A DNA stretch of 64,000 nt from Octopus vulgaris (taxonomy: Eukaryota): assembly GCA_951406725.2 (NCBI GenBank), contig OX597816.1:153078001-153142000 (forward strand). Reading direction: 5' to 3'. A program made the translations under genes and the position numbers. Positions within the stretch are counted from its first letter, which is position 1; every line of letters starts with the position of its first letter. This document shows, one piece after another, positions 16,339 to 49,238 of this stretch. The notes beneath the pieces were generated by a model that saw nothing but the letters and a program-made list of their open reading frames with translations, did not search any database and was not told the DNA's origin.

Positions 16339-17929
16339 AATATACACACACACACATATGGCAGGCTTCATTCAGGTTCTGTCTATCAAATTCATTCACA
16401 ATACTTTGGTTGGCTTGGTGCTAGTGTAGAAGACATTTGCCCAAAGTATTCCAAGCAACATGGTTGGGAAGTAAACTTAATAGAGTCATGTTTGTGCCTT
16501 ATAGCAATGAAAGAAAATAAACTTGGCAGTGTATGAGGAAATTAATTAAATGCATGTGTGTGTATGTGTGGGTAAAGGAGTTTAACTGAGTAAGAATTTT
16601 TAAAATACTTGTGAGTGTATGCAGTTGAGATGAGTGAAGAAAAAGGTTTCTGGAGTCAGAGTGAACACTAATGAGCAAATGAGAGCAAAGAAGAGTGTGT
16701 GTGTGTGTGCATACAGGTAGATGTGAGCCAAAAGTAAATATACATCTAAAAGTATGTTACATTGTTGTTGTTTAGTCTTAGGTCAACCCTGATCAAGCTC
16801 ATTTCCTGCCATAGTTATACTGCCTTTAATTCATGTATATAAAGGACATCACCAACAAATGTGTTCTTCCTCTATAAGATGTGAAGTTGGGATTTGAGGA
16901 TACAGTTGACTGAAATAACCTGAGTATTTGACTAAGACTTATCCTTATTGACCCCAGTGTGATGATAAGGTTAACTTTGGGGAGATTAGAAATCAGTCAT
17001 AAAAAATCATCATTCTTTCCTCATCTGATACATCCCTCCACCCTCCTTCACAAACTTATCCACACACTCTCCATGCCCCCCTCCTCCCACAACCACTCCA
17101 ATTTCTCTCACCATCACTTGCTAGTCACCTCTTCCCCATCCCAAATCATCTCCCCTCATACTCTTATGAAACATTTCTCTATCTCTCTTATATCTCCCAC
17201 ATCTGTTCCCTGTGGGTAGGTTCCAATGCATCTATATCTCTTACTCACTGATTCTCTATCATCTTTTCCTCTTTTCTTTTCCTACTGGGGTAGCCAAGTA
17301 TTTCCTCCATAATAAGACACCTATCTCAATCCCTTTGTTATATCTCGAGCAACTCACCTGGCACAAAGCCACTTTCCTCGGTACCACTCCCTCTCCCAGC
17401 CAAAAGGTTTTTGTCTTGCAAGTTACTTGGCAACCCTGCTCATGTTGGTGCCATGCAACAAGCACCAGTGGGCGCATAAAAAGCACCCAGTACATTCTGT
17501 AAAGTGGTTAATGTTAGGAAGGGCATCCAGCTGTAGAAACTATGCCAAAGCAGACAATAGAGCCCGGAGAAGCTCTCTGGCTTGCCAGCTACTGTCAAAC
17601 TCAAATGATAATGATGATATCTAAACTGGCTAAGGAATTTCATGGTTTTGATTGTACCAAAATTGAATTTCAGATACCTTCTAGAAATTCCAGCTGCTAA
17701 ATTGTTTTAGAAATTAACTAAATATATACTGTTATATGATATAATAATAATGAGGACAATATTTACACTAAAAGTTTTGTTACATAGGTACAATGGCTAT
17801 ATAATGTTAGAAGGGGATAATGATTATCAGTTAAATGGAATCTCAATATATTACTGGTACATCTATCATTCCTCCATAGATGAAACACAAAGTTGAACCT
17901 TCACAGGATCTGAACCCAGATATATAACA

Positions 17930-18390
17930 ACAATCCTTTCTCCTATAGTCACAAGGCCTGAAATTTGGAGGAGGGGGCTAGTCGATTACATGAAGCTCAG
18001 TGCATAACTGGTACTTATTTCATTGACCCCGAAAAGATGAAATGCAAAGTCAACCTCGGTGGAAATTGAACTCAGAACATAAGGATGGATGAAATGCTGC
18101 TAAGTATTTTGTCTGGCATGCTAATGATTTGACCAGCTTTGTCGCCTTACATGTATAATAATAATAATAACAACGGTTTCAAATTTTGGCACAAGGCCAG
18201 CAAATTAGGGGGAGGGGCTAAGTTGTTCACATCAACCCCATTGTTCAACTAGTAATTAATTTATCAGCCTCAAAAGGATGAAATGCAAGTTGACCATGGC
18301 AGAATTTGAACCCAGAACATAAGGATGGATGAAATGCTGCTAAACATTTTGCCTGGTGTGTTAATGATTCTGCCAGCTCAGCGCCTTACA
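17930..18390 (-). mobile_element. Two adjacent, CpG-decayed, complete copies of the tRNA SINE superfamily targeted by the Tx1 LINE
   Basis: Each has a tail, the gaccccgaaaagatgaaa core, a B box and a head; many CG to TG/CA changes relative to 49005-49238. Confidence 0.8.
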
Positions 18391-18409
18391 TATATAAAAG
18401 TAATAACAA

Positions 18410-19395
18410 TAATAAACTTATTGCATATGGTGCTCAGGTGCACCAAAACTCATCAGTAAAAGTAACCAAAAGTGCATGAACATACATTGAATAATGCACA
18501 GGGAGTCATTAAAGGATAAAAGAAAAGTGGGTTGGGCATCAGGTGTACTATTGGTGAATTTCAAGAAACATGGAAGTTTATGAATGTAGTGTTCTGAGAA
18601 CTAACAACTGATGCAGGTAGTTTATTCCATGATTCAGCAATTCTGAACACAAAAAAAGTGTTTCCAAAAGTCATGGGTGCTGTATGTTATTTTGATTTTG
18701 TAAGCATGTCCACAAGTGTTAGAATTCAAAATGGTGCCTAAGGTTTTTGTTGGAAAGATGGTAGATAATCTTGTGGGTGTCTACCAAGTTAGTTGCCAGA
18801 CATCAACAGTTCAAATATTCACCGTTGGGCATCTACCATACTTTGAACATCTTGCTTCCCTGGGCATGGACACATGAAAGCACCAGCATCTGGCAACTGA
18901 CTTGGTAGACACCCACAAGATTATCAACCATCTTTCCAACAACAATCTTAGGCATCTTTTTGAAAGTCATACATCTAACACTTATAGATCCACAAGATTA
19001 TCAACCATCTTTCCAACAACAATCTTAGGCATCTTTTTGAAAGTCATACATCTAACACTTATAGATATGTTTACAAAATAAAAAATCAATACAACACCCA
19101 TGACTTTTGGAAACATTTCTTCATGCTCAGAAATTGCTGAACCATAGAATAAACTACCTGCATCACCTGTTAGCTATTGAGACTCTACATCCTTCATATC
19201 TTCCATGCCTCCTGAAATTTGCCAACTACACCTGATGCCCCCCACCCACTCTCATTTCTTCTTCCTTTTTCTCTTTTTTAAAGACTTTTCCACTGTTCAC
19301 TTCCTGTGCATATTCTATGTACTGTTCATGCAGTTTCAGTTACTTTTTCTGATGAGCTGTAGTGCATCTAGTACTGTATACAATAAGTTCATTAT
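18410..19395. repeat. Long inverted repeat (arms about 18410-18801 and 18890-19395) formed by two CR1-like LINE 3' ends, containing a perfect 77-bp tandem duplication (18913-18989, 18990-19066)
   Basis: For example gatgcaggtagtttattc versus gaataaactacctgcatc, and cttgtgggtgtctaccaagt versus acttggtagacacccacaag. Confidence 0.85.
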
Positions 19396-32547: not shown

Positions 32548-33860
32548 CACTAAGAGGACCGGACTTTTCAACTATTAAAGACCAGAATGAGTCAATTGAC
32601 GCAAAGATGTTTTTCAATTTGAAAAGATAAAAAAAAAAAGAAAAGAAGTAGGAAACCTTTATTAAATATATGAATCTATTGAATTTTATGACTTCACGGT
32701 GATATTAATCACAGTAATTTGATATTTTGAAAGAAATTTATCGAAATTCTAAACATTCATCGCAATTTTTAGCGCACATTTGCGGAGGCTTTTTACAGAC
32801 TCCACCCATTCCTGTGGTACTGTTTCGGCATTTTCTTTTCACACATGTACGTCTGACTTTATTCCTAGGGGTAGATGTTTCCTCAATAGGGTGTTTGATA
32901 ATACTTGAACTACTGTGAAAGGAATCACCACAAAGTTCTTCAACAACTTTTTGAATATATTCCCGTTGACTTATGACTGAGATGCTAACACTTGTTAGCC
33001 ACATGTGCGGCAGACGAAATACGGCTACGCATTTCGTCCGGCGTGCTAACGTTTCTGCCAGCTCGCCGCCTTGAGCGGACCTATGATTAATGGCATTCTT
33101 TTGTGTCCATTCCAATAATTATTTTCAGGTAATATGTATCGTGGCTACATTGCCCAGTATGTACGAATTTAAGACAGCGATTAAGAGTGCGATTTCAAAA
33201 AGATTAGGGGATTGTTATTTCTAGCAGATCGAACAACCATGCAGAAGTTTACTCGTTAGTTCCAAACGCCTTCTTGTCAAGATACATGATTAGGTATCGT
33301 GACAAGCGATACTTCTTACTGGATAGCAAGCCTAACGTGTTTAACATCTAGGAGGATTTGAACTCATTAAAGCTCTCGTTAGTTTTACTCTGTCACTGCA
33401 ACAACCAAAATATTATTTAAAAAGGGTAAATTGGCCATTGTCTACTGTTTACTTTGATTGAATAAAGCCTTGCCATTTGTTGAAGCACAACTACGTCTGC
33501 CTTATTTTTATTACAAAAAAAGTATGGTGTTAGGCTTCTCCTTGGGGTTATTTACAGAAGGAACTTCTACATGCTGATATAAGGTACTTAAAACAACAAC
33601 AAACTTTTTGCATTGGTATGATGTGTGACAGTAGGCTTCTCTGTGGATTTCAAAACCACAGTTTCATGGAGTAGTTTCACCTGTTCTGTTTTAACGAATT
33701 GTTCCGACTAAACAAGTTTCGTTTTGCGAGCTGTAAAGGCTATGCAATTACTGAATATCTAAAACGTCACATGTATTTATAAGCAAAAGCAGGTGCAAGT
33801 TTCAAAAGTTACCAATGCGTCAACTGACGCATGTGGTCTTTATAGGTAGAATGTGGTTTA
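32548..33860 (-). mobile_element. Internally deleted piggyBac-like DNA transposon interrupted by segment A; its right part is duplicated at about 39850-40310
   Basis: TTAA at 32544-32547; imperfect inverted ends (aaagaccagaatgagtcaattgacgca versus tgcgtcaactgacgcatgtggtcttta); decayed transposase motifs LVGTIR, KPNTILF..KNK.DV...QMARLYSIK..SRQWP and a Cys-rich tail ISQREYIQKVVEEL..RRTC..KCRN..CKKP. Confidence 0.8.
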
Positions 33861-33920
33861 TTATTTTTTTTACAGTTGATGTTTTTTACAGTTCAACTAC
33901 TATAAACGCACGTATCATAC

Positions 33921-34104
33921 CTATTTCTTTACTACCCCTAAGGGGCTAAACACAGAGAGGACTAACAAGGACAGACAAACGGATTAAGTCGATTATATCG
34001 ATCCCAGTGCGTAACTGGTACTTAGTTTATCGACCCCGAAAGGATGAAAGGCAAAGTCGACCTCGGCGGAATTTGAACTCAGAACGTAACGGCAGACGAA
34101 ATAC
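33921..34104 (-). mobile_element. 3' part of a tRNA-derived SINE (B box, conserved core, Tx1-type tail) split by the LINE; duplicated at 40371-40554
   Basis: Minus strand GAGTTCAAATTCC (B box), GCCTTTCATCCTTTCGGGGTCGATAAA core and tail ending GTAGTAAAGAAATAG; collinear with the intact copy at 49005-49238. Confidence 0.9.
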
Positions 34105-34351
34105 GAATTTCTTTATTGCCCACCGGGGGCCAAACATAGATATGGACAGTACAACTGATGGGATCAGTGAATCGATATGATTTTACATAAATGTGACATC
34201 AAAAATAAAATACAATACATAAAAATCGAATGGAATACACAGTACAAAAACAATACAAATGAAGCGATGATCAAGTTACGCTCCGATCCCACAAGCCCCG
34301 ATCTACCGCTGATACCTTTTTATTTTTCCTTTTTTTTTTTTCCTCGTCTAT

Positions 34352-37300
34352 TCACACGGTTCCTTGCACGCACAACACTCGTGCAACATACTTCCATCTC
34401 TTTTGGAACGTACACTCTGACAGACACCTCTTCTCCAGCCACAGTTTCCTTTTCAAATGAAAAGAAAAAAAGGATCGTAAATTGTCACCAGAGATAAAGT
34501 TACCTGTCTTAATTCCTTTTATCCTAGTATTCCATACAGCCTCTTTTGCTATTGCTACAACCGTGAGAAAACAATTCTTACCTTCGTTCGTTAGAACTCC
34601 CGGTGGGTCAATTTTTATAATTGACTCAGTCGACAGCCGTACTCTTCCTTCGCCGGACAACAGATGTTCAGCATAAGCCCACATTTCAGTTATCTCCGGA
34701 CACTGAACAATAGCGTGAGGGACGGTTTCCCTGTCCCCCCGCATCTTGGACAGGTCGGCGACTGACGTTTACCATGTCTTGCGAGCTTATCCCAAACGGG
34801 CAAGGCACCTCTGTAGCATTGCCAGGTTAAGGACTTTTGGAAGTTGTCCAACGTTCTCAACCCGAATGTACGATGAAACAAGCTGTCCAGTTGAATAAAT
34901 CCGAGACCTAGAGTCGACCCCAGGCCATCGTCGCATTCAGACTCTACCAACCCACTATATAAAATCCGTGTGGAACCCCCACCGCTGGCGTTGCCCGAGC
35001 GCCGGAACAGCAAGAGGGCCTTACGGCACTCTTTATGCCACTCACTCGACCTCGGTCTACGAGAACACCAGGCTTCCTGTTCGCAAAAACTCTTGAGCTC
35101 AGGGAACATTTGTCTGGCCAGCGGAGACCACACCCGTTCACTATCCAGGAGAATCCAGAGGTGCCTCAACCTCAACGCATGTCTGCGCATCATTAACCAA
35201 GGCATCCCTAAACCTCCATTTAAAGGCTTTTGACAGCAGACAGAGCGTTTCACAAGTGGCGACCTGCCCTTCCACAAAAAGCGAAAGAGCTGTCTCTCCA
35301 ACCTGATCAACCACGAATCCGGACAGGGCACGACAGTCAGGCGGTAGGTAATGACTGATGCGATAAACACATTGGCCACCTCCGCCCTCCCTTTCAGGGA
35401 TAGCCACCGCCAAGACCAGGTCTTGACTACTGCAGCCACCCTGCTCAATACCTCCGTCCAGTTCTTCTCTATCTGGAGGCCTGGTCCAAACCAGACTCCC
35501 AGCAACTTAACCGGTCCCTCCGTCCAGCGCCTAACAACACTGTCTGAAGGCATCGACTTGCCAACCCAGGTGCCGAGCTGCAAGCCGACCGACTTTTCCC
35601 GGTTAATCTTTGCTCCTGCTACCTCCTCGTAAGCCTCAATAGTCTTACCTACTTCACGTAGGCGTGCCACTGTGGTTACACTGATAGTGATATCATCCGC
35701 GAAAGCCGTAACAAACTCCTCTAGTCCTGGTTCTCTCGGGATGCCACTCAACCTTTGCAGTAATGGCTCGAGAGCCATCACATACAAAAGTGGTGAAAGC
35801 GGACATCCTTGACGAACCGAGCGTCTGATGCAGAACGGCTTCGAAAGGAAACCGTTCACCCGAACTATCGAGTCAATGTTGTGGTACAAAGCGATAAACC
35901 ACCTGAGGAAGCCAAGACCCAGGCCAAACCGCGCAAGTACAGTCGCTAGGTATCGATGGTCAACCCTATCAAAAGCTTTAGACTGGTCCAAATGCACCAA
36001 TGCCCCACCTTTGCCAGATTTATTACCAACCTCTCTATGGTATAGCGAATAAGATGGAGGGTATCCTGAATGGTTCTGCCTGGGATGGCACATGTCTGTG
36101 CCTCCCCGACTATACCATTCGCGACACGCGCCAACCTTTTTGCTAGAACCTTGGCCAAAATCTTCACTTCTGCGTTTAACAGAGTGATGGGCCTGAAATT
36201 CTCTAGAACGTCCCCCTTGTCCGGGTCCTTTCTGACCAACGTCACTACTCCCCGGCGCACAGATCTGGGGATAAACCCATTCTGTTTCCAGTTCGCGTAC
36301 ACGTCAGTCAGTAGTTGCCCGAACAAGTCTGGCATACATTTATATAGCTCGTACGGAAGACCATCAAGTCCCGGTGACTTACCCGCTTTACAATCGGCCA
36401 AAGCCTCCATCACCTCCTCAAGTGTGATTGGCCCTTCGCAAGACTCCGCATCCGACCCCGAGAGGCACGGCAGCCCGGTAAGAAAATCCTCGAGGGCTCT
36501 CCCACCACCAGGACCGCCGTCACCCCCGAACAGCTGGGTGAAGTACTCCCGAAAGACCTCACACATTTTCTCGGGTTCGTTTATCAAGACACCATTTTGA
36601 TTCGTCAAAGACCGAATAGAGGAACTATTTCCTTGCCGAGCTTCCACCACTCGGGCCCATCCAGCGGCCTTAATTCCTTCACTTCCCATTGCACGTAACT
36701 TAGCTCTGGTAATACTTCCCATGTGGTGGGCTTCAAGATGCTGGTTTAACTCCAGTCTTTTCACCCTCGCTTGGTCTGTATTACCAGTCCTCCAGGCTTC
36801 TTCTAGTTCCTTAACTAGACCATCTCCTATTTTACGTCCCTTCTTAGCTAAACTTATGCTAAATCTAATAGACTCATATTTGATGGCTCTTTTTAGGGCG
36901 TACCACCATTTGTTATTAATGATGGTACCTGTTAATGCCCTTTGTATTAACATCTTGATCCGCTTTCTGTACTCCTCAATCGCCAAAAGGGACGTATTGA
37001 GTTTCCAGTAGCCAGATCCCTGTCTATGCAACTTATCTACCGTCAGTTTACAGGTAACCATCTTGTGGTCACTGTAGCTGACTAGAAAAAACTGTGGACA
37101 CTCAACTATGGACTTATCTTTTTCTCTAATTAAAATCCTATCTAGATATGTTCTGGTAGACCCGTCACTATTTGACCACGTCCACTGTGGAGTGTTCGGG
37201 TGTTCCAACCTATATGGATCTGCTAGCTGAAATTGACTTAGCAGATCCCGAAAGCCTGGGTTACATTTTCTGTTCATGTTCGAGTTTGAGCCAACACAAT

Positions 37301-37750
37301 CTGTGTGTGCTGCACATATTGTATTAGAGTCTCCTAACACTACTAGTGAATGCGACGTGGCTAGGAACCTTCCTAGGCCACGAAAATATTCAGTTTGCGG
37401 GCCAATAATGTTTGGTGCGTAAATAGCGACCAGCCTGATTGTCTTGCCACAACTGAATGTCAAGTCGAGAACGACCAGCCTGCCTTCTGGGTCAGAAAAA
37501 ACCAACTTTTTCTCGGCTACCCGGTTTCTGTTTAGTAGGACCAACACCCCACCCCACCTCCCGCCCGACTCGGAGAAACGTATTTCTCGTAGCCGTTCAG
37601 GAGGGGTAGCAGATCTCTTGGCCCCTTCACCCGGGTTTCCGTTGCAACAATTACATCCAAATTTCTCGACCTGATGTCATTTAGAAAGCGTCCTTGCTTC
37701 CAGCTTGACAACAGGCCATGAACATTTAAACAACCAATGTGAATAGACAT
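34352..37750 (-). pseudogene. Tx1 LINE copy 1 ORF2 (APE endonuclease, reverse transcriptase, CCHC), frameshifted
   Basis: GCLNVHGL, ATETR, AIYAPN, YLDRIL, SDH, GYWKLNTSLL, KSPGLDGLPYELY, DQSKAFDRVDH, RQGCPLSPLLY, FADDI, CPRC..ETVPHAIVQC, split across four ORFs. Confidence 0.93.
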
Positions 37751-37753
37751 GAC

Positions 37754-39290
37754 TTACCTGTTTAATTAGGATTGTCCGGTGGAGGGGGACCCTCCACCTT
37801 TTTTTAATCCAGGGTCGGAGGTGGACGGTCTTGGGAAATAGATTTGTCAAAATCCCGTCTCACCACCGACACAGAATTATCAGGCGGAGGGAGAATCTCC
37901 ACCTTTTCCTTTTCTCGCGGGATCGGGGCTGGTAATCCATGAAATATCGACTTGTTAAAATCTAATCTCAATGAAGATACAGTCTTTCTGTATTTATTTT
38001 GTAGAATTCTATAAGTCTTATTTGAGACTTCATATTTGTCATAATTGATAAATTCCTCTGAAAGGTTATCTATTTTTTTACAGTCTTTATGAGTTGAATG
38101 TCTCTCATGAGCTCAGTATCTTTAGTGTATACGGCTATTATGCCTTTTTCTTCTTTTTCTCTTCTGGCAGTCTTTTTTGGTCGTTGTTCTGTAGTAGTCG
38201 CCGCTCTCGGCTGGGTTGCTGGTTGTATTTTTCTTTTGTTTGTTGTTTTTTTCTCATCTGTTTCTTCTTTATCTTCTTCCTCTTTGTCTTTTTTCTCCTC
38301 TTCCTCCTCTTCTTCATTTTCCTTGCATTTCCTTCGAATGTGGCCTAATTGACCACATAAAAAAACATCGAGGTTTTCGGCCCTCAACAAACACCACGAG
38401 GGTCTCCTCCCCTACCTCAATTGTCTCGGGAATAGCTTGAATTATTTTAGGGTCCGCTTGAATGAGAAGATTAATTGTTTGACCATCCCAGCGTGGGTTT
38501 TCCGTAGCGGTAACCTGGAGGAGAGTAATTTTTTCTACCTCTTTGATTAGGACTGCCGCCAACAACCACATATGTTCGACCTCTGGCGGGACCCTTGTAA
38601 TTTTTATTCTCGACGTCCTCATCCCCATATAATAGGGGATGAGCTCCACGTCGTTCGTTTTCAACGTTTCAATTGAGTTCTTGTGTGCTATTTCTTTATT
38701 GGTGAACCTTACTTCCACCGTTCCGAATTTTTTCCTCTTCTCAGATATACTACGTCGCCCCATATTGGCTTTAAGCACTTTTCTATTTTCTCTTCTGACA
38801 TTCTTTCAATTTTTCTTTTTTGTAGACAATATGTTTTGAAAATTATTGTTTCTTGCTTTTCTTCTTGTAATAACTTTTGCGGAGGTTCAATTTTCACACC
38901 GTTGTCAGTTATTTTCATCATTTTGGCTGTATTTCATAAAGTCGCTTTTATTCGTCGACAGTATCGGGTTCCACCCCCAGCAGCCAACGCAAAACTTTTT
39001 TTTCTATTTTTTGGTTCTATCTGGATGCTAGGCACATCAATTATTCTCTTCGACACAATGCCTTTGTTCTCTGGCAAAGTCGGAAGCTCTTCTGGTGAAA
39101 GTTCTGACGAGCCCTCAGACACATCTCCAAAAATATCAAATATATTATCCTCTCTGCTATTCCTTCTTGTAGCGGGGGAAACCCCTATTTCCTTGTCTGT
39201 AGTTGGCTCCTCGCCGGACATGTATTTCCTCCTCTCAACAGGAGAAACAAGTATTTCTGCTCCAACGGTAGGCTCCATGCTAGACGACAT
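37754..39290 (-). pseudogene. Tx1 LINE copy 1 ORF1 (gag-like, CCHC zinc knuckle, acidic/basic tract), frameshifted
   Basis: VFVEGRKPRCF-LCGQLGHIRRKC across a homopolymer frameshift; lies directly upstream of ORF2. Ends are approximate. Confidence 0.85.
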
Positions 39291-39455
39291 TCTTCCCCCC
39301 AAAGGGGGAATGAACAACGCGTGCTACCACAAGCACTAAGTGTTTTCAAATTGAAAACTCCAACAGTTAAGTTATTCAACAGTTTAACAAGAAACAACAG
39401 TTGTTAACAATATTAACACCACGAAACAGCAATTCTTACTTCACGAACACATGTG

Positions 39456-39520
39456 CGGCAGACGAAATACGGCTACGCATTTCGTCCGGCGTGCTAACGT
39501 TTCTGCCAGCTCGCCGCCTT
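39456..39520 (-). mobile_element. 5' tRNA-like head of the same SINE (also at 33008-33072 and 45905-45969)
   Basis: Minus strand AAGGCGGCGAGCTGGCAGAAACGTTAGCACGCCGG with an A-box-like motif; matches 49174-49238. Confidence 0.9.
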
Positions 39521-40800
39521 GAGCGGACCTATGATTAATGGCATTCTTTTTTGTGTCCATTCCAATAATTATTTTCAGGTAATATGTATCGTGGCTACAT
39601 TGCCCAGTATGTACGAATTTAAGACAGCGATTAAGAGTGCGATTTCAAAAAGATTAGGGGATTGTTATTTCTAGCAGATCGAACAACCATGCAGAAGTTT
39701 ACTCGTTAGTTCCAAACGCCTTCTTGTCAAGATACATGATTAGGTATCGTGACAAGCGATACTTCTTACTGGATAGCAAGCCTAACGTGTTTAACATCTA
39801 GGAGGATTTGAACTCATTAAAGCTCTCGTTAGTTTTACTCTGTCACTGCAACAACCAAAATATTATTTAAAAAGGGTAAATTGGCCATTGTCTACTGTTT
39901 ACTTTGATTGAATAAAGCCTTGCCATTTGTTGAAGCACAACTACGTCTGCCTTATTTTTATTACAAAAAAAGTATGGTGTTAGGCTTCTCCTTGGGGTTA
40001 TTTACAGAAGGAACTTCTACATGCTGATATAAGGTACTTAAAACAACAACAAACTTTTTGCATTGGTATGATGTGTGACAGTAGGCTTCTCTGTGGATTT
40101 CAAAACCACAGTTTCATGGAGTAGTTTCACCTGTTCTGTTTTAACGAATTGTTCCGACTAAACAAGTTTCGTTTTGCGAGCTGTAAAGGCTATGCAATTA
40201 CTGAATATCTAAAACGTCACATGTATTTATAAGCAAAAGCAGGTGCAAGTTTCAAAAGTTACCAATGCGTCAACTGACGCATGTGGTCTTTATAGGTAGA
40301 ATGTGGTTTATTATTTTTTTTACAGTTGATGTTTTTTACAGTTCAACTACTATAAACGCACGTATCATACCTATTTCTTTACTACCCCTAAGGGGCTAAA
40401 CACAGAGAGGACTAACAAGGACAGACAAACGGATTAAGTCGATTATATCGATCCCAGTGCGTAACTGGTACTTAGTTTATCGACCCCGAAAGGATGAAAG
40501 GCAAAGTCGACCTCGGCGGAATTTGAACTCAGAACGTAACGGCAGACGAAATACGAATTTCTTTATTGCCCACCGGGGGCCAAACATAGATATGGACAGT
40601 ACAACTGATGGGATCAGTGAATCGATATGATTTTACATAAATGTGACATCAAAAATAAAATACAATACATAAAAATCGAATGGAATACACAGTACAAAAA
40701 CAATACAAATGAAGCGATGATCAAGTTACGCTCCGATCCCACAAGCCCCGATCTACCGCTGATACCTTTTTATTTTTCCTTTTTTTTTTTCCTCGTCTAT

Positions 40801-43800
40801 TCACACGGTTCCTTGCACGCACAACACTCGTGCAACATACTTCCATCTCTTTTGGAACGTACACTCTGACAGACACCTCTTCTCCAGCCACAGTTTCCTT
40901 TTCAAATGAAAAGAAAAAAAGGATCGTAAATTGTCACCAGAGATAAAGTTACCTGTCTTAATTCCTTTTATCCTAGTATTCCATACAGCCTCTTTTGCTA
41001 TTGCTACAACCGTGAGAAAACAATTCTTACCTTCGTTCGTTAGAACTCCCGGTGGGTCAATTTTTATAATTGACTCAGTCGACAGCCGTACTCTTCCTTC
41101 GCCGGACAACAGATGTTCAGCATAAGCCCACATTTCAGTTATCTCCGGACACTGAACAATAGCGTGAGGGACGGTTTCCCTGTCCCCCCGCATCTTGGAC
41201 AGGTCGGCGACTGACGTTTACCATGTCTTGCGAGCTTATCCCAAACGGGCAAGGCACCTCTGTAGCATTGCCAGGTTAAGGACTTTTGGAAGTTGTCCAA
41301 CGTTCTCAACCCGAATGTACGATGAAACAAGCTGTCCAGTTGAATAAATCCGAGACCTAGAGTCGACCCCAGGCCATCGTCGCATTCAGACTCTACCAAC
41401 CCACTATATAAAATCCGTGTGGAACCCCCACCGCTGGCGTTGCCCGAGCGCCGGAACAGCAAGAGGGCCTTACGGCACTCTTTATGCCACTCACTCGACC
41501 TCGGTCTACGAGAACACCAGGCTTCCTGTTCGCAAAAACTCTTGAGCTCAGGGAACATTTGTCTGGCCAGCGGAGACCACACCCGTTCACTATCCAGGAG
41601 AATCCAGAGGTGCCTCAACCTCAACGCATGTCTGCGCATCATTAACCAAGGCATCCCTAAACCTCCATTTAAAGGCTTTTGACAGCAGACAGAGCGTTTC
41701 ACAAGTGGCGACCTGCCCTTCCACAAAAAGCGAAAGAGCTGTCTCTCCAACCTGATCAACCACGAATCCGGACAGGGCACGACAGTCAGGCGGTAGGTAA
41801 TGACTGATGCGATAAACACATTGGCCACTTCCGCCCTCCCTTTCAGGGATAGCCACCGCCAAGACCAGGTCTTGACTACTGCAGCCACCCTGCTCAATAC
41901 CTCCGTCCAGTTCTTCTCTATCTGGAGGCCTGGTCCAAACCAGACTCCCAGCAACTTAACCGGTCCCTCCGTCCAGCGCCTAACAACACTGTCTGAAGGC
42001 ATCGACTTGCCAACCCAGGTGCCGAGCTGCAAGCCGACCGACTTTTCCCGGTTAATCTTTGCTCCTGCTACCTCCTCGTAAGCCTCAATAGTCTTACCTA
42101 CTTCACGTAGGCGTGCCACTGTGGTTACACTGATAGTGATATCATCCGCGAAAGCCGTAACAAACTCCTCTAGTCCTGGTTCTCTCGGGATGCCACTCAA
42201 CCTTTGCAGTAATGGCTCGAGAGCCATCACATACAAAAGTGGTGAAAGCGGACATCCTTGACGAACCGAGCGTCTGATGCAGAACGGCTTCGAAAGGAAA
42301 CCGTTCACCCGAACTATCGAGTCAATGTTGTGGTACAAAGCGATAAACCACCTGAGGAAGCCAAGGCCCAGGCCAAACCGCGCAAGTACAGTCGCTAGGT
42401 ATCGATGGTCAACCCTATCAAAAGCTTTAGACTGGTCCAAATGCACCAATGCCCCACCTTTGCCAGATTTATTACCAAACCTCTCTATGGTATAGCGAAT
42501 AAGATGGAGGGTATCCTGAATGGTTCTGCCTGGGATGGCACATGTCTGTGCCTCCCCGACTATACCATTCGCGACACGCGCCAACCTTTTTGCTAGAACC
42601 TTGGCCAAAATCTTCACTTCTGCGTTTAACAGAGTGATGGGCCTGAAATTCTCTAGAACGTCCCCCTTGTCCGGGTCCTTTCTGACCAACGTCACTACTC
42701 CCCGGCGCACAGATCTGGGGATAAACCCATTCTGTTTCCAGTTCGCGTACACGTCAGTCAGTAGTTGCCCGAACAAGTCTGGCATACATTTATACAGCTC
42801 GTACGGAAGACCATCAAGTCCCGGTGACTTACCCGCTTTACAATCGGCCAAAGCCTCCATCACCTCCTCAAGTGTGATTGGCCCTTCGCAAGACTCCGCA
42901 TCCGACCCCGAGAGGCACGGCAGCCCGGTAAGAAAATCCTCGAGGGCTCTCCCACCACCAGGACCGCCGTCACCCCCGAACAGCTGGGCGAAGTACTCCC
43001 GAAAGACCTCACACATTTTCTCGGGTTCGTTTATCAAGACACCATTTTGATTCGTCAAAGACCGAATAGAGGAACTATTTCCTTGCCGAGCTTCCACCAC
43101 TCGGGCCCATCCAGCGGCTTTGATTCCTTCACTTCCCATTGCACGTAACTTAGCTCTGGTAATACTTCCCATGTGGTGGGCTTCAAGATGCTGGTTTAAC
43201 TCCAGTCTTTTCACCCTCGCTTGGTCTGTATTACCAGTCCTCCAGGCTTCTTCTAGTTCCTTAACTAGACCATCTCCTATTTTACGTCCCTTCTTAGCTA
43301 AACTTATGCTAAACCTAATAGACTCATATTTGATGGCTCTTTTTAGGGCGTACCACTATTTGTTATTAATGATGGTACCTGTTAATGCCCTCTGTATTAA
43401 CATCTTGATCCGCTTTCTGTACTCCTCAATCGCCAAAAGGGACGTATTGAGTTTCAAGTAGCCAGATCCCTGTCTATGCAACTTATCTACCGTCAGTTTA
43501 CAGGTAACCATCTTGTGGTCACTGTAGCTGACTAGAAAAAACTGTGGACACTCAACTATGGACTTATCTTTTTCTCTAATTAAAATCCTATCTAGATATG
43601 TTCTGGTAGACCCGTCACTATTTGACCACGTCCACTGTGGAGTGTTCGGGTGCTCCAACCTATATGGATCTGCTAGCTGAAATTGACTTAGCAGATCCCG
43701 AAAGCCTGTGTTACATTTTCTGTTCATGTTCGAGTTTGAGCCAACACAATCTGTGTGTGCTGCACATATTGTATTAGAGTCTCCTAACACTACTAGTGAA

Positions 43801-44200
43801 TGCGACGTGGCTAGGAACTTTCCTAGGCCACGAAAATATTCAGTTTGCGGGCCAATAATGTTTGGTGCATAAATAGCGACCAGCCTGATTGTCTTGCCAC
43901 AACTGAATGTCAAGTCGAGAACGACCAGCCTGCCTTCTGGGTCAGAAAAAACCAACTTTTTCTCGGCTACCCGGTTTCTTTTTAGTAGGACCAACACCCC
44001 ACCCCACCTCCCGCCCGACTCGGAGAAACGTATTTCTCGTAGCCGTTCAGGAGGGGGAGCAGATCTCTTGGCCCCTTCACCCGGGTTTCCGTTGCAACAA
44101 TTACATCCAAATTTCTCGACCTGATGTCATTCAGAAAGCGTCCTTGCTTCCAGCTTGACAACAGGCCATGAACATTTAAACAACCAATGTGAATAGCCAT
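40801..44200 (-). pseudogene. Tx1 LINE copy 2 ORF2 with shared frameshifts and an in-frame TAG at 43356
   Basis: ORFs 43982-44203, 43356-43997, 41139-43214 (uninterrupted RT core) and 40801-41193. Confidence 0.93.
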
Positions 44201-44203
44201 CAC

Positions 44204-45740
44204 TTACCTGTTTAATTAGGATTGTCCGGTGGAGGGGGACCCTCCACCTTTTTTTATCCAGGGTCGGAGGTGGACGGTCTTGGGAAATAGATTTGTCAAA
44301 ATCCCGTCTCACCACCGACACAGAATTATCAGGTGGAGGGGGAATCTCCACCTTTTCCTTTTCTCGCGGGATCGGAGCTGGTAATCCATGAAATATCGAC
44401 TTGTTAAAATCTAATCTCAATGAAGATACAGTCTTTCTGTACTTATTTTGTAGAATTCTATAAGTCTTATTTGAGACTTCATATATGTCGTAATTGATAA
44501 ATTCCTCTGAAAGGTTATCAATTTTTTTTACAGTCTTTATGAGTTGAATGTCTCTCATGAGCTCAGTATCTTTAGTGTATACGGCTATTATGCCTTTTTC
44601 TTCTTTTTCTCTTCTGGCAGTCTTTTTTGGTCGTTGTTCTGTAGTAGTCGCCGCTCTCGGCTGGGTTGCTGGTTGTATTTTTCTTTTGTTTGTTGTTTTT
44701 TTCTCATCTGTTTCTTCTTTATCTTCTTCCTCTTTGTCTTTTTTCTCCTCTTCCTCCTCTTCTTCATTTTCCTTGCAGTTCCTTCGAATGTGGCCTAATT
44801 GACCACATAAAAAAACATCGAGGTTTTCGGCCCTCAACAAACACCACGAGGTTCTCCTCCCCTACCTCAATTGTCTCAGGAATTGTTTGAATTATTTTAG
44901 GGTCCGCTTGAATGAGAAGATTAATTGTTTGACCATCCCAGCGTGGGTTTTCCGTAGCGGTAGCCTGGAGGAGAGTAATTTTTTCTACCTCTTTGATTAG
45001 GACTGCCGCCAACAACCACATAGGTTCGACCTCTGGCGGGACCCTTGTAATTTTTATTCGCGACGTCCTCATCCCCATATAATAGGGTATTAACTCCACG
45101 TCGTTCGTTTTCAACGTTTCAACTGAGTTCTTGTGTGCTATTTCTTTATTGGTGAACCTTACTTCCACCGTTCCGAATTTTTTTCCTCTTCTCAGAAATA
45201 CTACGTCGCCCAATATTGGCTTTAAGCACTTTTCTATTTTCTCTTCTGACATTCTTTCAATTTTTCTATTTTGTAGACAATATGTTTTGAAAATTATTGT
45301 TTTTTGCTTTTCTTCCTGTAATAACTTTTGCGGAGGTTCAATTTTCACACTGTTGTCAGTTATTTCCATCATTTTGCTGTATTTCATAATTTCGCTTTTA
45401 TTCGTCGACAGTATCTGGGTTCCACCCCCAGCAGCCAACGCAAAACTTTTTTTTCCATTTTTTGGTTCTATCTGGATGCTAGGCACATCAATTATTCTCT
45501 TCGACACAATGCCTTTGTTCTCTGGCAAAGTCGGAAACTCTTCTGGTGAAAGTTCTGACGAGCTCTCAGACACATCTCCAAAAATATCAAATATATTATC
45601 CTCTCTGCTATTCCTTCTTGTAGCGGGGAAACCCCTATTTCCTTGTCTGTAGTTGGCTCCTCGCCGGACATGTATTTCCTCCTCTCAACAGGAGAAACAA
45701 GTATTTCTGCTCCAACGGTAGGCTCCATGCTAGACGACAT
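44204..45740 (-). pseudogene. Tx1 LINE copy 2 ORF1, frameshifted
   Basis: ORFs 45492-45767, 44764-45573 and 44127-44840, with the CCHC knuckle. Ends are approximate. Confidence 0.85.
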
Positions 45741-46999
45741 TCTTCCCCCCAAAGGGGGAATGAACAACGCGTGCTACCACAAGCACTAAGTGTTTTCAAT
45801 TGAAAACTCCAACAGTTAAGTTATTCAACAGTTTAACAAGAAACAACAGTTGTTAACAATATTAACACCACGAAACAGCAATTCTTACTTCACGAACACA
45901 TGTGCGGCAGACGAAATACGGCTACGCATTTCGTCCGGCGTGCTAACGTTTCTGCCAGCTCGCCGCCTTGAGCGGACCTATGATTAATGGCATTCTAGCT
46001 GTGTCCATTCCAATAATTATTTTCAGGTAATATGTATCGTGGCTACATTGCCCAGTATGTACGAATTTAAGACAGCGATTAAGAGTGCGATTTCAAAAAG
46101 ATTAGGGGATTGTTATTTCTAGCAGATCGAACAACCATGCAGAAGTTTACTCGTTAGTTCCAAACGCCTTCTTGTCAAGATACATGATTAGGTATCGTGA
46201 CAAGCGATACTTCTTACTGGATAGCAAGCCTAACGTGTTTAACATCTAGGAGGATTTGAACTCATTAAAGCTCTCGTTAGTTTTACTCTGTCACTGCTAC
46301 TTAGGTACATTGATCTGTACCTCCTCGCTTCACTTATTTATAGCTAAATGGGCTGAGTCATTGAGAATTAAATGTCTTTGCCGATTTTATATTGCAGTAC
46401 TTGTAACGTGGAAATATACTAACACTGACAGGCTGACGACCAAGATGCCTATAAGTGAATTAGTATTGCTTTGTTTAGTTAAGCTCTGGACGAGGGAGTG
46501 AGAGAGAAAGAAAGAAAGAAAGGAAGGAAGGAAGGAAGGAAGGAAGGAAGGAAGGAAGGAAGGAAGGAAGAAAGAAAGAAAGACAAAGAGAGAAAGAGGG
46601 AGAGAACGGAATGGAGACAGGGATTGGGAGCAAACAAAGGTATAAAATAGCATCAAATGATTAAATAAAGATCTGATGTTCAAAAATCAAATTCCCATTC
46701 ATCTGTCGAATGCTATATGAAAATCCAATAAACAGATAAGCACAGAATCAAAGATCAAATCACCGAGGGAATGTGATATTTCTAATTAATACAGCTATAA
46801 GGAAATATCGAATTATCGAATTTGGTATCGAACCAACAAACCTTGAGATACTTGTGATAAAGAACCGATTGAAGTCAGATAAAAATTCCCCAGCAACCTT
46901 TATGGATTGGTGATCAAATAGGATGGATGAGAGACCTTCTAAATTCTAAACATCATGATATATCAATGTTTATATTTCTGCCATGAATATCAGTGGACA

Positions 47000-48577: not shown

Positions 48578-48665
48578 AAACACCCCCCATCCTTGGGCAA
48601 GTGTCTTCTACTATAGCCCGGGCCGACCAAAGCCTTGTGAGTGGATTTGGCAGGCTTGTTTTAAT

Positions 48666-49238
48666 ATTCTTTTCTACTCTAGGCATAAGGCCCGAAATTT
48701 TTGAGGAGGGGGCCAGTCGATTAGATCGACCTGAATACGCTACTAATACTTAATTTATCGACCCCGAAAGGATGAAAGGCAAAGTCAACCTCGGCGGAAT
48801 TTGAACTCAGAACGTAACGGCAGACGAAATACCTATTTCTTTACTACCCACAAGGGGATAAACACAGAGAGGACAAACAAGGACAGACAAACAGATTAAG
48901 TCGATTAGATCGACCCCAGTGCGTAACTGATACTTATTCAATCGACCCCGAAAGGATGAAAGGCAAAGTCGACCTCGGTGGAATTTGAACTCAGAACGTA
49001 ATACCTATTTCTTTACTACCCACAAGGGGCTAAACACAGAGAGGACAAACAAGGACAGACAAACAGATTAAGTCGATTAGATCGACCCCAGTGCGTAACT
49101 GATACTTATTCAATCGACCCCGAAAGGATGAAAGGCAAAGTCGACCTCGGTGGAATTTGAACTCAGAACGTAGCGGCAAACAAAATACCGCTTAGCATTT
49201 CGCCCGGCGTGCTAACGTCTCTGCCATCTCACCGCCTT
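48666..49238 (-). mobile_element. Nested head-to-tail SINE array: host SINE body (48666-48832), two Tx1-tailed units (48833-49004, 49005-49188) and one tRNA head
   Basis: Three SINE bodies but only one head; junction cggcagacgaaatac|ctatttctttac at 48832. Confidence 0.9.

Follow-up and report, generated by a model that had tools for sequence, protein, structure and literature searches.

The window analysed here comprises 64,000 nucleotides of the Octopus vulgaris genome (assembly GCA_951406725.2, contig OX597816.1, positions 153,078,001 to 153,142,000) and contains, on its minus strand, a tRNA-type short interspersed element (SINE) that is split by a full-length, 5.35-kb long interspersed element (LINE copy 1, 34106..39455). 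The SINE head (39456..39520, minus strand), present as the GCGTAGCC variant, carries an A-box-like motif, TGGCAGA at SINE base 13, and the 5′ arm of a hairpin of which the target sequence forms the 3′ arm. The SINE body (33921..34105, minus strand) contains a B-box-like motif (GAGTTCAAATTCC, at about SINE base 77, identified by eye and missing the strict B-box pattern by one base), a core and a LINE-like tail. An earlier sequence-only reading had described a complete LINE, inserted in the SINE's own orientation between its A and B boxes and flanked by a perfect 15-bp target-site duplication. The window sequence confirms the orientation and the splitting of the SINE, and places the insertion at SINE base 53, between two motifs that are box-like only. 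The element is indeed full length, but it is dead: compared with unbroken natural copies, its second open reading frame (ORF2) has three frame changes and its ORF1 is fragmented. Likewise, the 15-bp sequence CGGCAGACGAAATAC is found at both 34090 and 39456, but the direct repeat is actually 16 bp long, with its 3′ copy, the target sequence, at 34090..34105 and its 5′ copy at 39456..39471 (both on the minus strand). Removal of the LINE restores the SINE seen at 49005-49238, as had been proposed; the two halves are collinear with it, and are identical at 56 of 65 positions in the head and 170 of 184 in the body.

Two coding regions can be recognised in LINE copy 1, both on the minus strand. The ORF1 region (37789..39323, located by tblastn with a natural 519-amino-acid frame) encodes a CCHC knuckle and an acidic/basic linker, here in several frames; ORF1 is separate and contains a single zf-CCHC domain (E 8.6e-5). 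The ORF2 region (34355..37750) encodes an APE endonuclease, a reverse transcriptase (RT) and a zf-RVT domain, with the frame changes of copy 1 near 37560, 36027 and 34737. The endonuclease is N-terminal (PF03372, E 2.2e-10 in a natural unbroken copy), and its catalytic residues N, E, Y, D, N, D and H are in place in an alignment with human L1 ORF2p. Among solved proteins of non-LTR elements (those that lack long terminal repeats), the RT is nearest to L1 (L1 ORF2p, E 2e-64, versus R2, E 2e-20); the C-terminus carries a CCHC zf-RVT domain (PF13966, E 2.3e-7). Protein searches brought up no named Tx1 reference; the nearest named protein matches over the RT region are from Argonauta hians (62%) and Coilia grayii (44%). 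Judged by its sequence, the LINE belongs to the L1 group, and the Tx1-clade label is plausible in view of the combination of APE, RT and zf-RVT, the CCHC ORF1 and the target specificity described below. The element behaves like a Tx1-type target-specific LINE and is a candidate for membership of that clade in the strict sense.

Genome-wide, the same base of the SINE is by far the most frequent location of this LINE. Our query was an exact 25-base motif from the LINE 3′ end that stops seven bases before the junction; it captures no more than the copies of young to moderate age, those in a more decayed state going uncounted. It gave 79 genome matches (control, 0), and all 79 flanks were inspected. 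The proposal that the family uses an abundant SINE as its landing pad is supported: instead of running into unrelated sequence, 71 of the 79 matches continue, at this very base, into a SINE body (69 were placed by script and two by eye, L025 and L083, where the target is followed by a SINE with a small deletion). With one match that is itself a SINE (L084) left out and the two copies in the window counted once, 70 of 77 independent LINE 3′ ends (91%) lie at SINE base 53. All 30 of the LINE 5′ ends that were fetched are preceded by SINE head sequence. Target-specific non-LTR elements have been defined as those with one sequence in over 20% of their flanks (PMC4494074, available to us, like all papers cited here, as partial text), a share exceeded here by the flank common to both ends. 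In 40 arbitrary 10-kb stretches we found 82 SINE hits, covering 3.1% of bases; the same 400 kb contained 22 intact sites and 14 array junctions, thus about 36 usable sites or about one in 20,000 strand positions, which, with 70 of 77 ends on site, excludes chance. A sister LINE family (about 55-77% at the amino acid level, with the same type of tail) had none of 30 copies at the SINE site, and 17 of the 30 were placed by eye on a short motif, GGATG. Among these sister copies (L178-L207), four have a common downstream repeat and two are at other SINE positions.

The seven off-site ends lie on the 5′ end of another LINE family (three), in degenerate sequence (one) and in unique DNA (three); the last three show 16-bp duplications, one with two mismatches. 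The older copies L092, L094 and L095 stop on the 5′ end of a LINE from a third family, which itself begins with target-like sequence, so that elements stack at the same site there as well. All seven non-SINE ends begin with GTAT or an ATAT-like sequence, as solo SINE insertions often begin with GGTAT or ATAT, and the sister family has a short motif of its own. This would fit an endonuclease with only a short GTAT-type preference, for which the SINE wins by its abundance. Yet about 2 million 6-mers versus about 250,000 SINE sites (rough values, from base composition and the 36 sites per 400 kb) predict about 10% of ends on site, not 91%, and the choice of one of two head variants (see below) would go unexplained, which makes this a very unlikely account. 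The historical target could also have been a real tRNA gene or another Pol III gene, the SINE being hit as a look-alike; tRNA loci are targets of the Tx1 clade. Families of this clade are found in U2 snRNA genes, and U5 and 5S targets appear in the Fig. 3 legend of the study cited above (PMC4494074). However, none of the 79 flanks is tRNA-like, all of them continuing into SINE core or other DNA; a search for the parent tRNA of the SINE head gave no genes with ARAGORN and no match in Rfam; and the hairpin that contains the site is extended, exceeding an anticodon arm in length. We therefore consider a Pol III gene target highly improbable. As to recognition of a cruciform, the hairpin at the site is visible by eye, but the 108-nucleotide region folds no better than shuffled sequences (z −0.84), which leaves this idea unsupported.

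The SINE is more than a landing pad, since it shares the LINE's tail and targets itself. It has the features of a tRNA-type SINE, namely A and B boxes (the latter by eye), a core, which we take to resemble the CORE/Meta domains, a LINE-like tail, flanking duplications and a high copy number. The LINE lacks poly(A), and its last 45 bases or so (34106..34150, minus strand) resemble the tail of one SINE family in alignments and self-BLAST. This LINE-like SINE tail has 58,415 exact matches, 27,203 of which (46.6%) are followed within one to three bases by the first six target bases; for the control, a SINE with the same head but another tail, the figure is 16 of 3,919 (0.41%, chance level), so that stacking depends on the tail. 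In the random 400 kb, 14 of 31 SINE tails were at the site, one was at a second site and 16 were elsewhere. A second SINE-in-SINE site is at head base 19 and begins with AGAAAC (L007, L096, L098, L112, L116, L145); solo insertions of one tail variant also start with AGAAA, hinting at another driver family. In L084 (6123-6354), the SINE tail exactly matches the 25-base 3′ motif of the LINE, which suggests, on sequence grounds, an exchange of tails with this LINE family.

A SINE array usually has a single head followed by units of 184 bp, and its last unit often belongs to the other-tailed family. The window contains an example, on the minus strand, at 48650..49238: a full SINE (49005-49238) is followed by a unit that has no head and lacks 12 bp at the site (48833-49004) and by the body of an other-tailed SINE (48832 down to about 48650). 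The separate SINE insertion that had been noted at 48832 is thus real, a SINE tail joining the target base there and again at 49004. At G000:C1:4676261-4677961, an array of at least 10 units with 185-bp spacing, the last an other-tailed SINE, suggests a route from SINE to minisatellite. Arrays of this length at 184-185 bp spacing, and the fact that some are bracketed by a single duplication, might point to DNA-level tandem duplication or unequal crossing-over, with only the LINE being site-specific. But the boundaries between units coincide without exception with the base used by the LINE (15 of the 82 random hits start at base 53), the last unit often belongs to the other SINE family, and other-tailed SINEs form no such arrays. 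Tandem duplication as the origin of the arrays is thus rather unlikely, although long arrays may be the result of secondary expansion.

That a LINE inserts into its putative partner SINE is strongly supported by these data. LINE and SINE share both a 3′ tail and a target, the host SINEs predate the young LINEs, and the LINE-tailed SINEs were likely copied by enzymes of this LINE lineage, their trans-mobilisation being putative. We are confident that copy 1 is a dead member of a young LINE family of the L1 group, likely of Tx1 type, which inserts at a fixed base in the head of a tRNA-type SINE, and that LINE-tailed SINEs, probably copied by the same lineage's enzymes, stack at this base.

The insertions are independent events. 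Among 38 copies, similarity is 99.1% in the final 150 bp of the LINE and 91.8% in the adjoining SINE bodies (595 of 703 pairs, the others having been dropped as poor alignments); the host SINEs are therefore older than the LINEs, and the two were inserted separately. The host SINEs come from two families with head and core in common and different tails, and in nine 5′-truncated LINE copies a SINE head lies directly upstream, ending between head bases 36 and 59 (by eye). Segmental duplication was rejected as a source of the shared flanks, as the outer flanks differ and the SINE bodies are 8% apart. We also considered a composite transcript in which SINE head, LINE and SINE body travel together, the SINE portions being the ends of the element itself and not a target. 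Full-length copies are preceded by uniform heads (38 of 39 are of one variant), the 5′ repeat has a shared variant, outer duplications of 13-19 bp surround many units, and 13 copies have a body without a head. Such a transcript is hard to reconcile with SINE bodies that are 8% diverged, versus 1% for the LINEs, and belong to two families, with the head retained right at the site in the nine truncated copies, and with headless copies that have no duplication after the SINE tail; outer duplications, in turn, are expected from the host SINE's own insertion. We give the composite transcript almost no credence, and for the young lineage it is already largely refuted.

Repeat pairs were compared in 39 independent full-length copies with both ends (42 were paired; two were unparsed and a duplicate was dropped), and the 5′ and 3′ 15-mers were identical in only eight of them. 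At repeat position 13, 21 copies have T in the 5′ and C in the 3′ repeat, and two the reverse (p 6.6e-5). Since decay would be symmetric, the LINE often brings its 5′ repeat copy along by inheritance. In two copies, both repeats carry a private variant at position 7, so that the inherited part starts later in these. Of 69 copies, 50 have C, 17 have G and two have T as the base that precedes the repeat. On a tree of the 55 copies that provided enough sequence (short and deleted ones were left out, the two T were scored as C, and three G from non-SINE sites were included), this label changes once, with a support of 100/98 and C nested in G. As exact sites, the head variants that supply C and G occur with equal frequency (11,657 versus 10,383). 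The C type makes up 12 of 63 intact SINE copies of all ages, and it hosts 38 of 39 full-length LINE copies and all seven informative truncated ones. The switch reflects either a changed endonuclease, in which small differences exist, or pairing of read-through RNA with the primer; by analogy with the proposal for R1, asymmetry and switch together suggest target-like sequence on the LINE RNA.

Residues 1-240 of the ORF2 of L079, whose endonuclease domain is unbroken in nature, served to compare endonucleases: the youngest copies have GDSN and older ones GDFN, and a two-residue insertion distinguishes C-type from G-type copies. The older lineage (L083, L085, L091, L092, L100, L116, L119) has a different 5′ untranslated region and ORF1, with about 65% DNA identity, and a closely related ORF2; its 5′ end likewise starts with target-like bases. 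The replacement of ORF1 is located near the G-to-C target switch. In L092, L094, L112, L100 and L119, ORF1 sequence is fused directly to late ORF2, with an identical breakpoint in two of them; these are possible non-autonomous deletion derivatives.

Established target-primed reverse transcription and the model for R1 of Drosophila (Stage and Eickbush 2009, PMC2718515) suggest a mechanism. R1 is of the APE type and makes a 14-bp duplication by staggered cuts, and target sequence on its RNA ends was proposed to anneal to the cut site, giving precise junctions (PMC2718515). In the octopus, the APE endonuclease would nick the bottom strand at a site with a GTAT core, preferring the longer SINE context, reverse transcription would be primed at this nick, and the top strand would be cleaved some 16 bp downstream. 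The start of the LINE RNA likely falls within target-like sequence (..CGTCTGT..), so that the cDNA end could anneal to the top-strand overhang, often overwriting a portion of the 5′ repeat. When the RNA of one SINE enters another, it would anneal over the whole head, which would give headless units, one-head arrays and the 184-bp unit length. The base before the repeat, C in young and G in older copies, would be set by the endonuclease or by the read-through pairing. More tentatively, LINE and SINE might form a self-feeding loop, in which a transcript with target sequence at both ends, derived from the master copy's own SINE, pairs with the nicked site, and the target variant is inherited, or switched (from G to C, once), through the location of the master and not through the enzyme.

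Several observations weigh against the LINE-in-SINE interpretation or limit its reach. Thirteen mostly older copies have a SINE body downstream and no head over more than 10 kb upstream, and no duplication surrounds LINE plus SINE in these; we assume later deletions or target deletions. For 14 headless older copies a further 10 kb upstream was searched, which yielded no head in register; one of these copies is an inversion. In truncated on-target copies the duplication measures no more than 0-7 bp, instead of 16 bp, or small deletions are seen. Among contigs from sequencing runs, no piece spanned the junction by a 31-letter rule. Some half of the LINE-tailed SINEs are found away from the site, which makes the SINE far less specific than the LINE. 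The roughly 80 LINE copies, many of them younger than the SINEs, cannot by themselves account for 58,000 or more SINEs. Array junctions mostly have G (about 92 of 100 listed), as in the older lineage, and the LINE tail is also common to sister families. This LINE family, its older lineage and the sister families are thus candidate drivers of most of the SINEs.

The closest precedent is that of the crocodilian Tx1-Mar LINEs and SINEU, where Tx1 families target other transposons and SINEU passengers have the same target (Kojima 2015, PMC4494074). In both cases LINEs and their putative SINE passengers have a preferred site in common inside another repeat; the passengers are often in tandem, like the arrays described here, and some of the LINEs have 5′ ends derived from RNA genes, which we count as a further likeness (PMC4494074). 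Tx1-Mar and SINEU differ in targeting a third party, Mariner-N4_AMi, in two regions and with 13-90% of SINE copies (PMC4494074), whereas in octopus it is the SINE family that serves as target, at only one base and with 91% of LINE ends, and SINEs with the same head and another tail provide a control. Tx1L in Tx1D of Xenopus, Tx1-9_AMi in Harbinger, Tx1-8_Crp and Tx1-4_AMi in LTR elements and Keno in U2 are also of the APE type with multicopy targets, but, as far as the partial text goes, their targets are neither a SINE nor an element mobilised by the LINE itself (PMC4494074). R1 resembles the octopus LINE in its APE-type endonuclease, the duplication from staggered cuts and the target sequence proposed on its RNA, but belongs to another clade and targets 28S rDNA (PMC2718515). 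Unlike that of R1, the octopus target is polymorphic, so that RNA-carried bases are directly visible and the variant switch maps to one branch. The tRNA-derived octopus SINEs OK, OR1 and OR2 were reportedly described by Ohshima and Okada in 1994. By description only, they resemble the present SINEs in having a tRNA-type head, a shared core and different tails (cited in PMC4758252 and PMC4824008); the partial texts of these two papers contain no mention of a partner LINE or of self-targeting for them. In the literature we found no report of a LINE that targets its partner SINE, or of this octopus system, the partial texts of PMC4640811, PMC4758252, PMC4824008 and PMC3747384 included; Repbase or Dfam entries could already hold it. 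L1-Tx1 families of an octopus are listed in PMC13282606, in the accessible text of which the words 'target' and 'nested' are absent.

Target-specific LINEs are usually directed at multicopy genes of the host or at transposons unrelated to them; in this case they hit the putative promoter region of their own presumed passenger. The SINE likely makes landing sites for its own carrier, and each LINE insertion separates the A and B boxes of a SINE. The SINE-in-SINE junctions, which number in the tens of thousands, shape a few percent of the genome. As the target is polymorphic and close sisters have other specificities, the system can be used to test how an APE endonuclease gains sequence specificity. 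It could also reveal the share of RNA-DNA pairing in first- and second-strand priming, which is still debated and is relevant to retrotransposon-based gene insertion.

The window bears the marks of a local tandem duplication, which spans 33000-46300 and amounts to about 2.06 units of 6449 bp. A second SINE-LINE-SINE unit (40367..45969, minus strand; unit about 6449 bp) is a tandem duplicate and not an independent insertion. The two LINE copies had been read as descendants of one insertion, and unique flanks common to both bear this out. At 33000..33072 (minus strand) a third copy of head and repeat is followed by only 8 bp of the LINE 5′ end, where the duplicated tract ends. The two LINE copies differ by 1.9% in the 5′ 1.8 kb and by 0.1% in the 3′ part. 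The 5′ half of copy 1 is as distant from copy 2 (1.9%) as from any other copy, being 1.8-2.8% from all 14 other full copies compared. This mosaic, with a diverged 5′ half and a nearly identical remainder, may stem from gene conversion, recombination with another copy, or an assembly error. Two older SINE relatives at 17924-18412, about 75-80% similar and with TAA tails, are arranged in tandem and are not joined at the target base.

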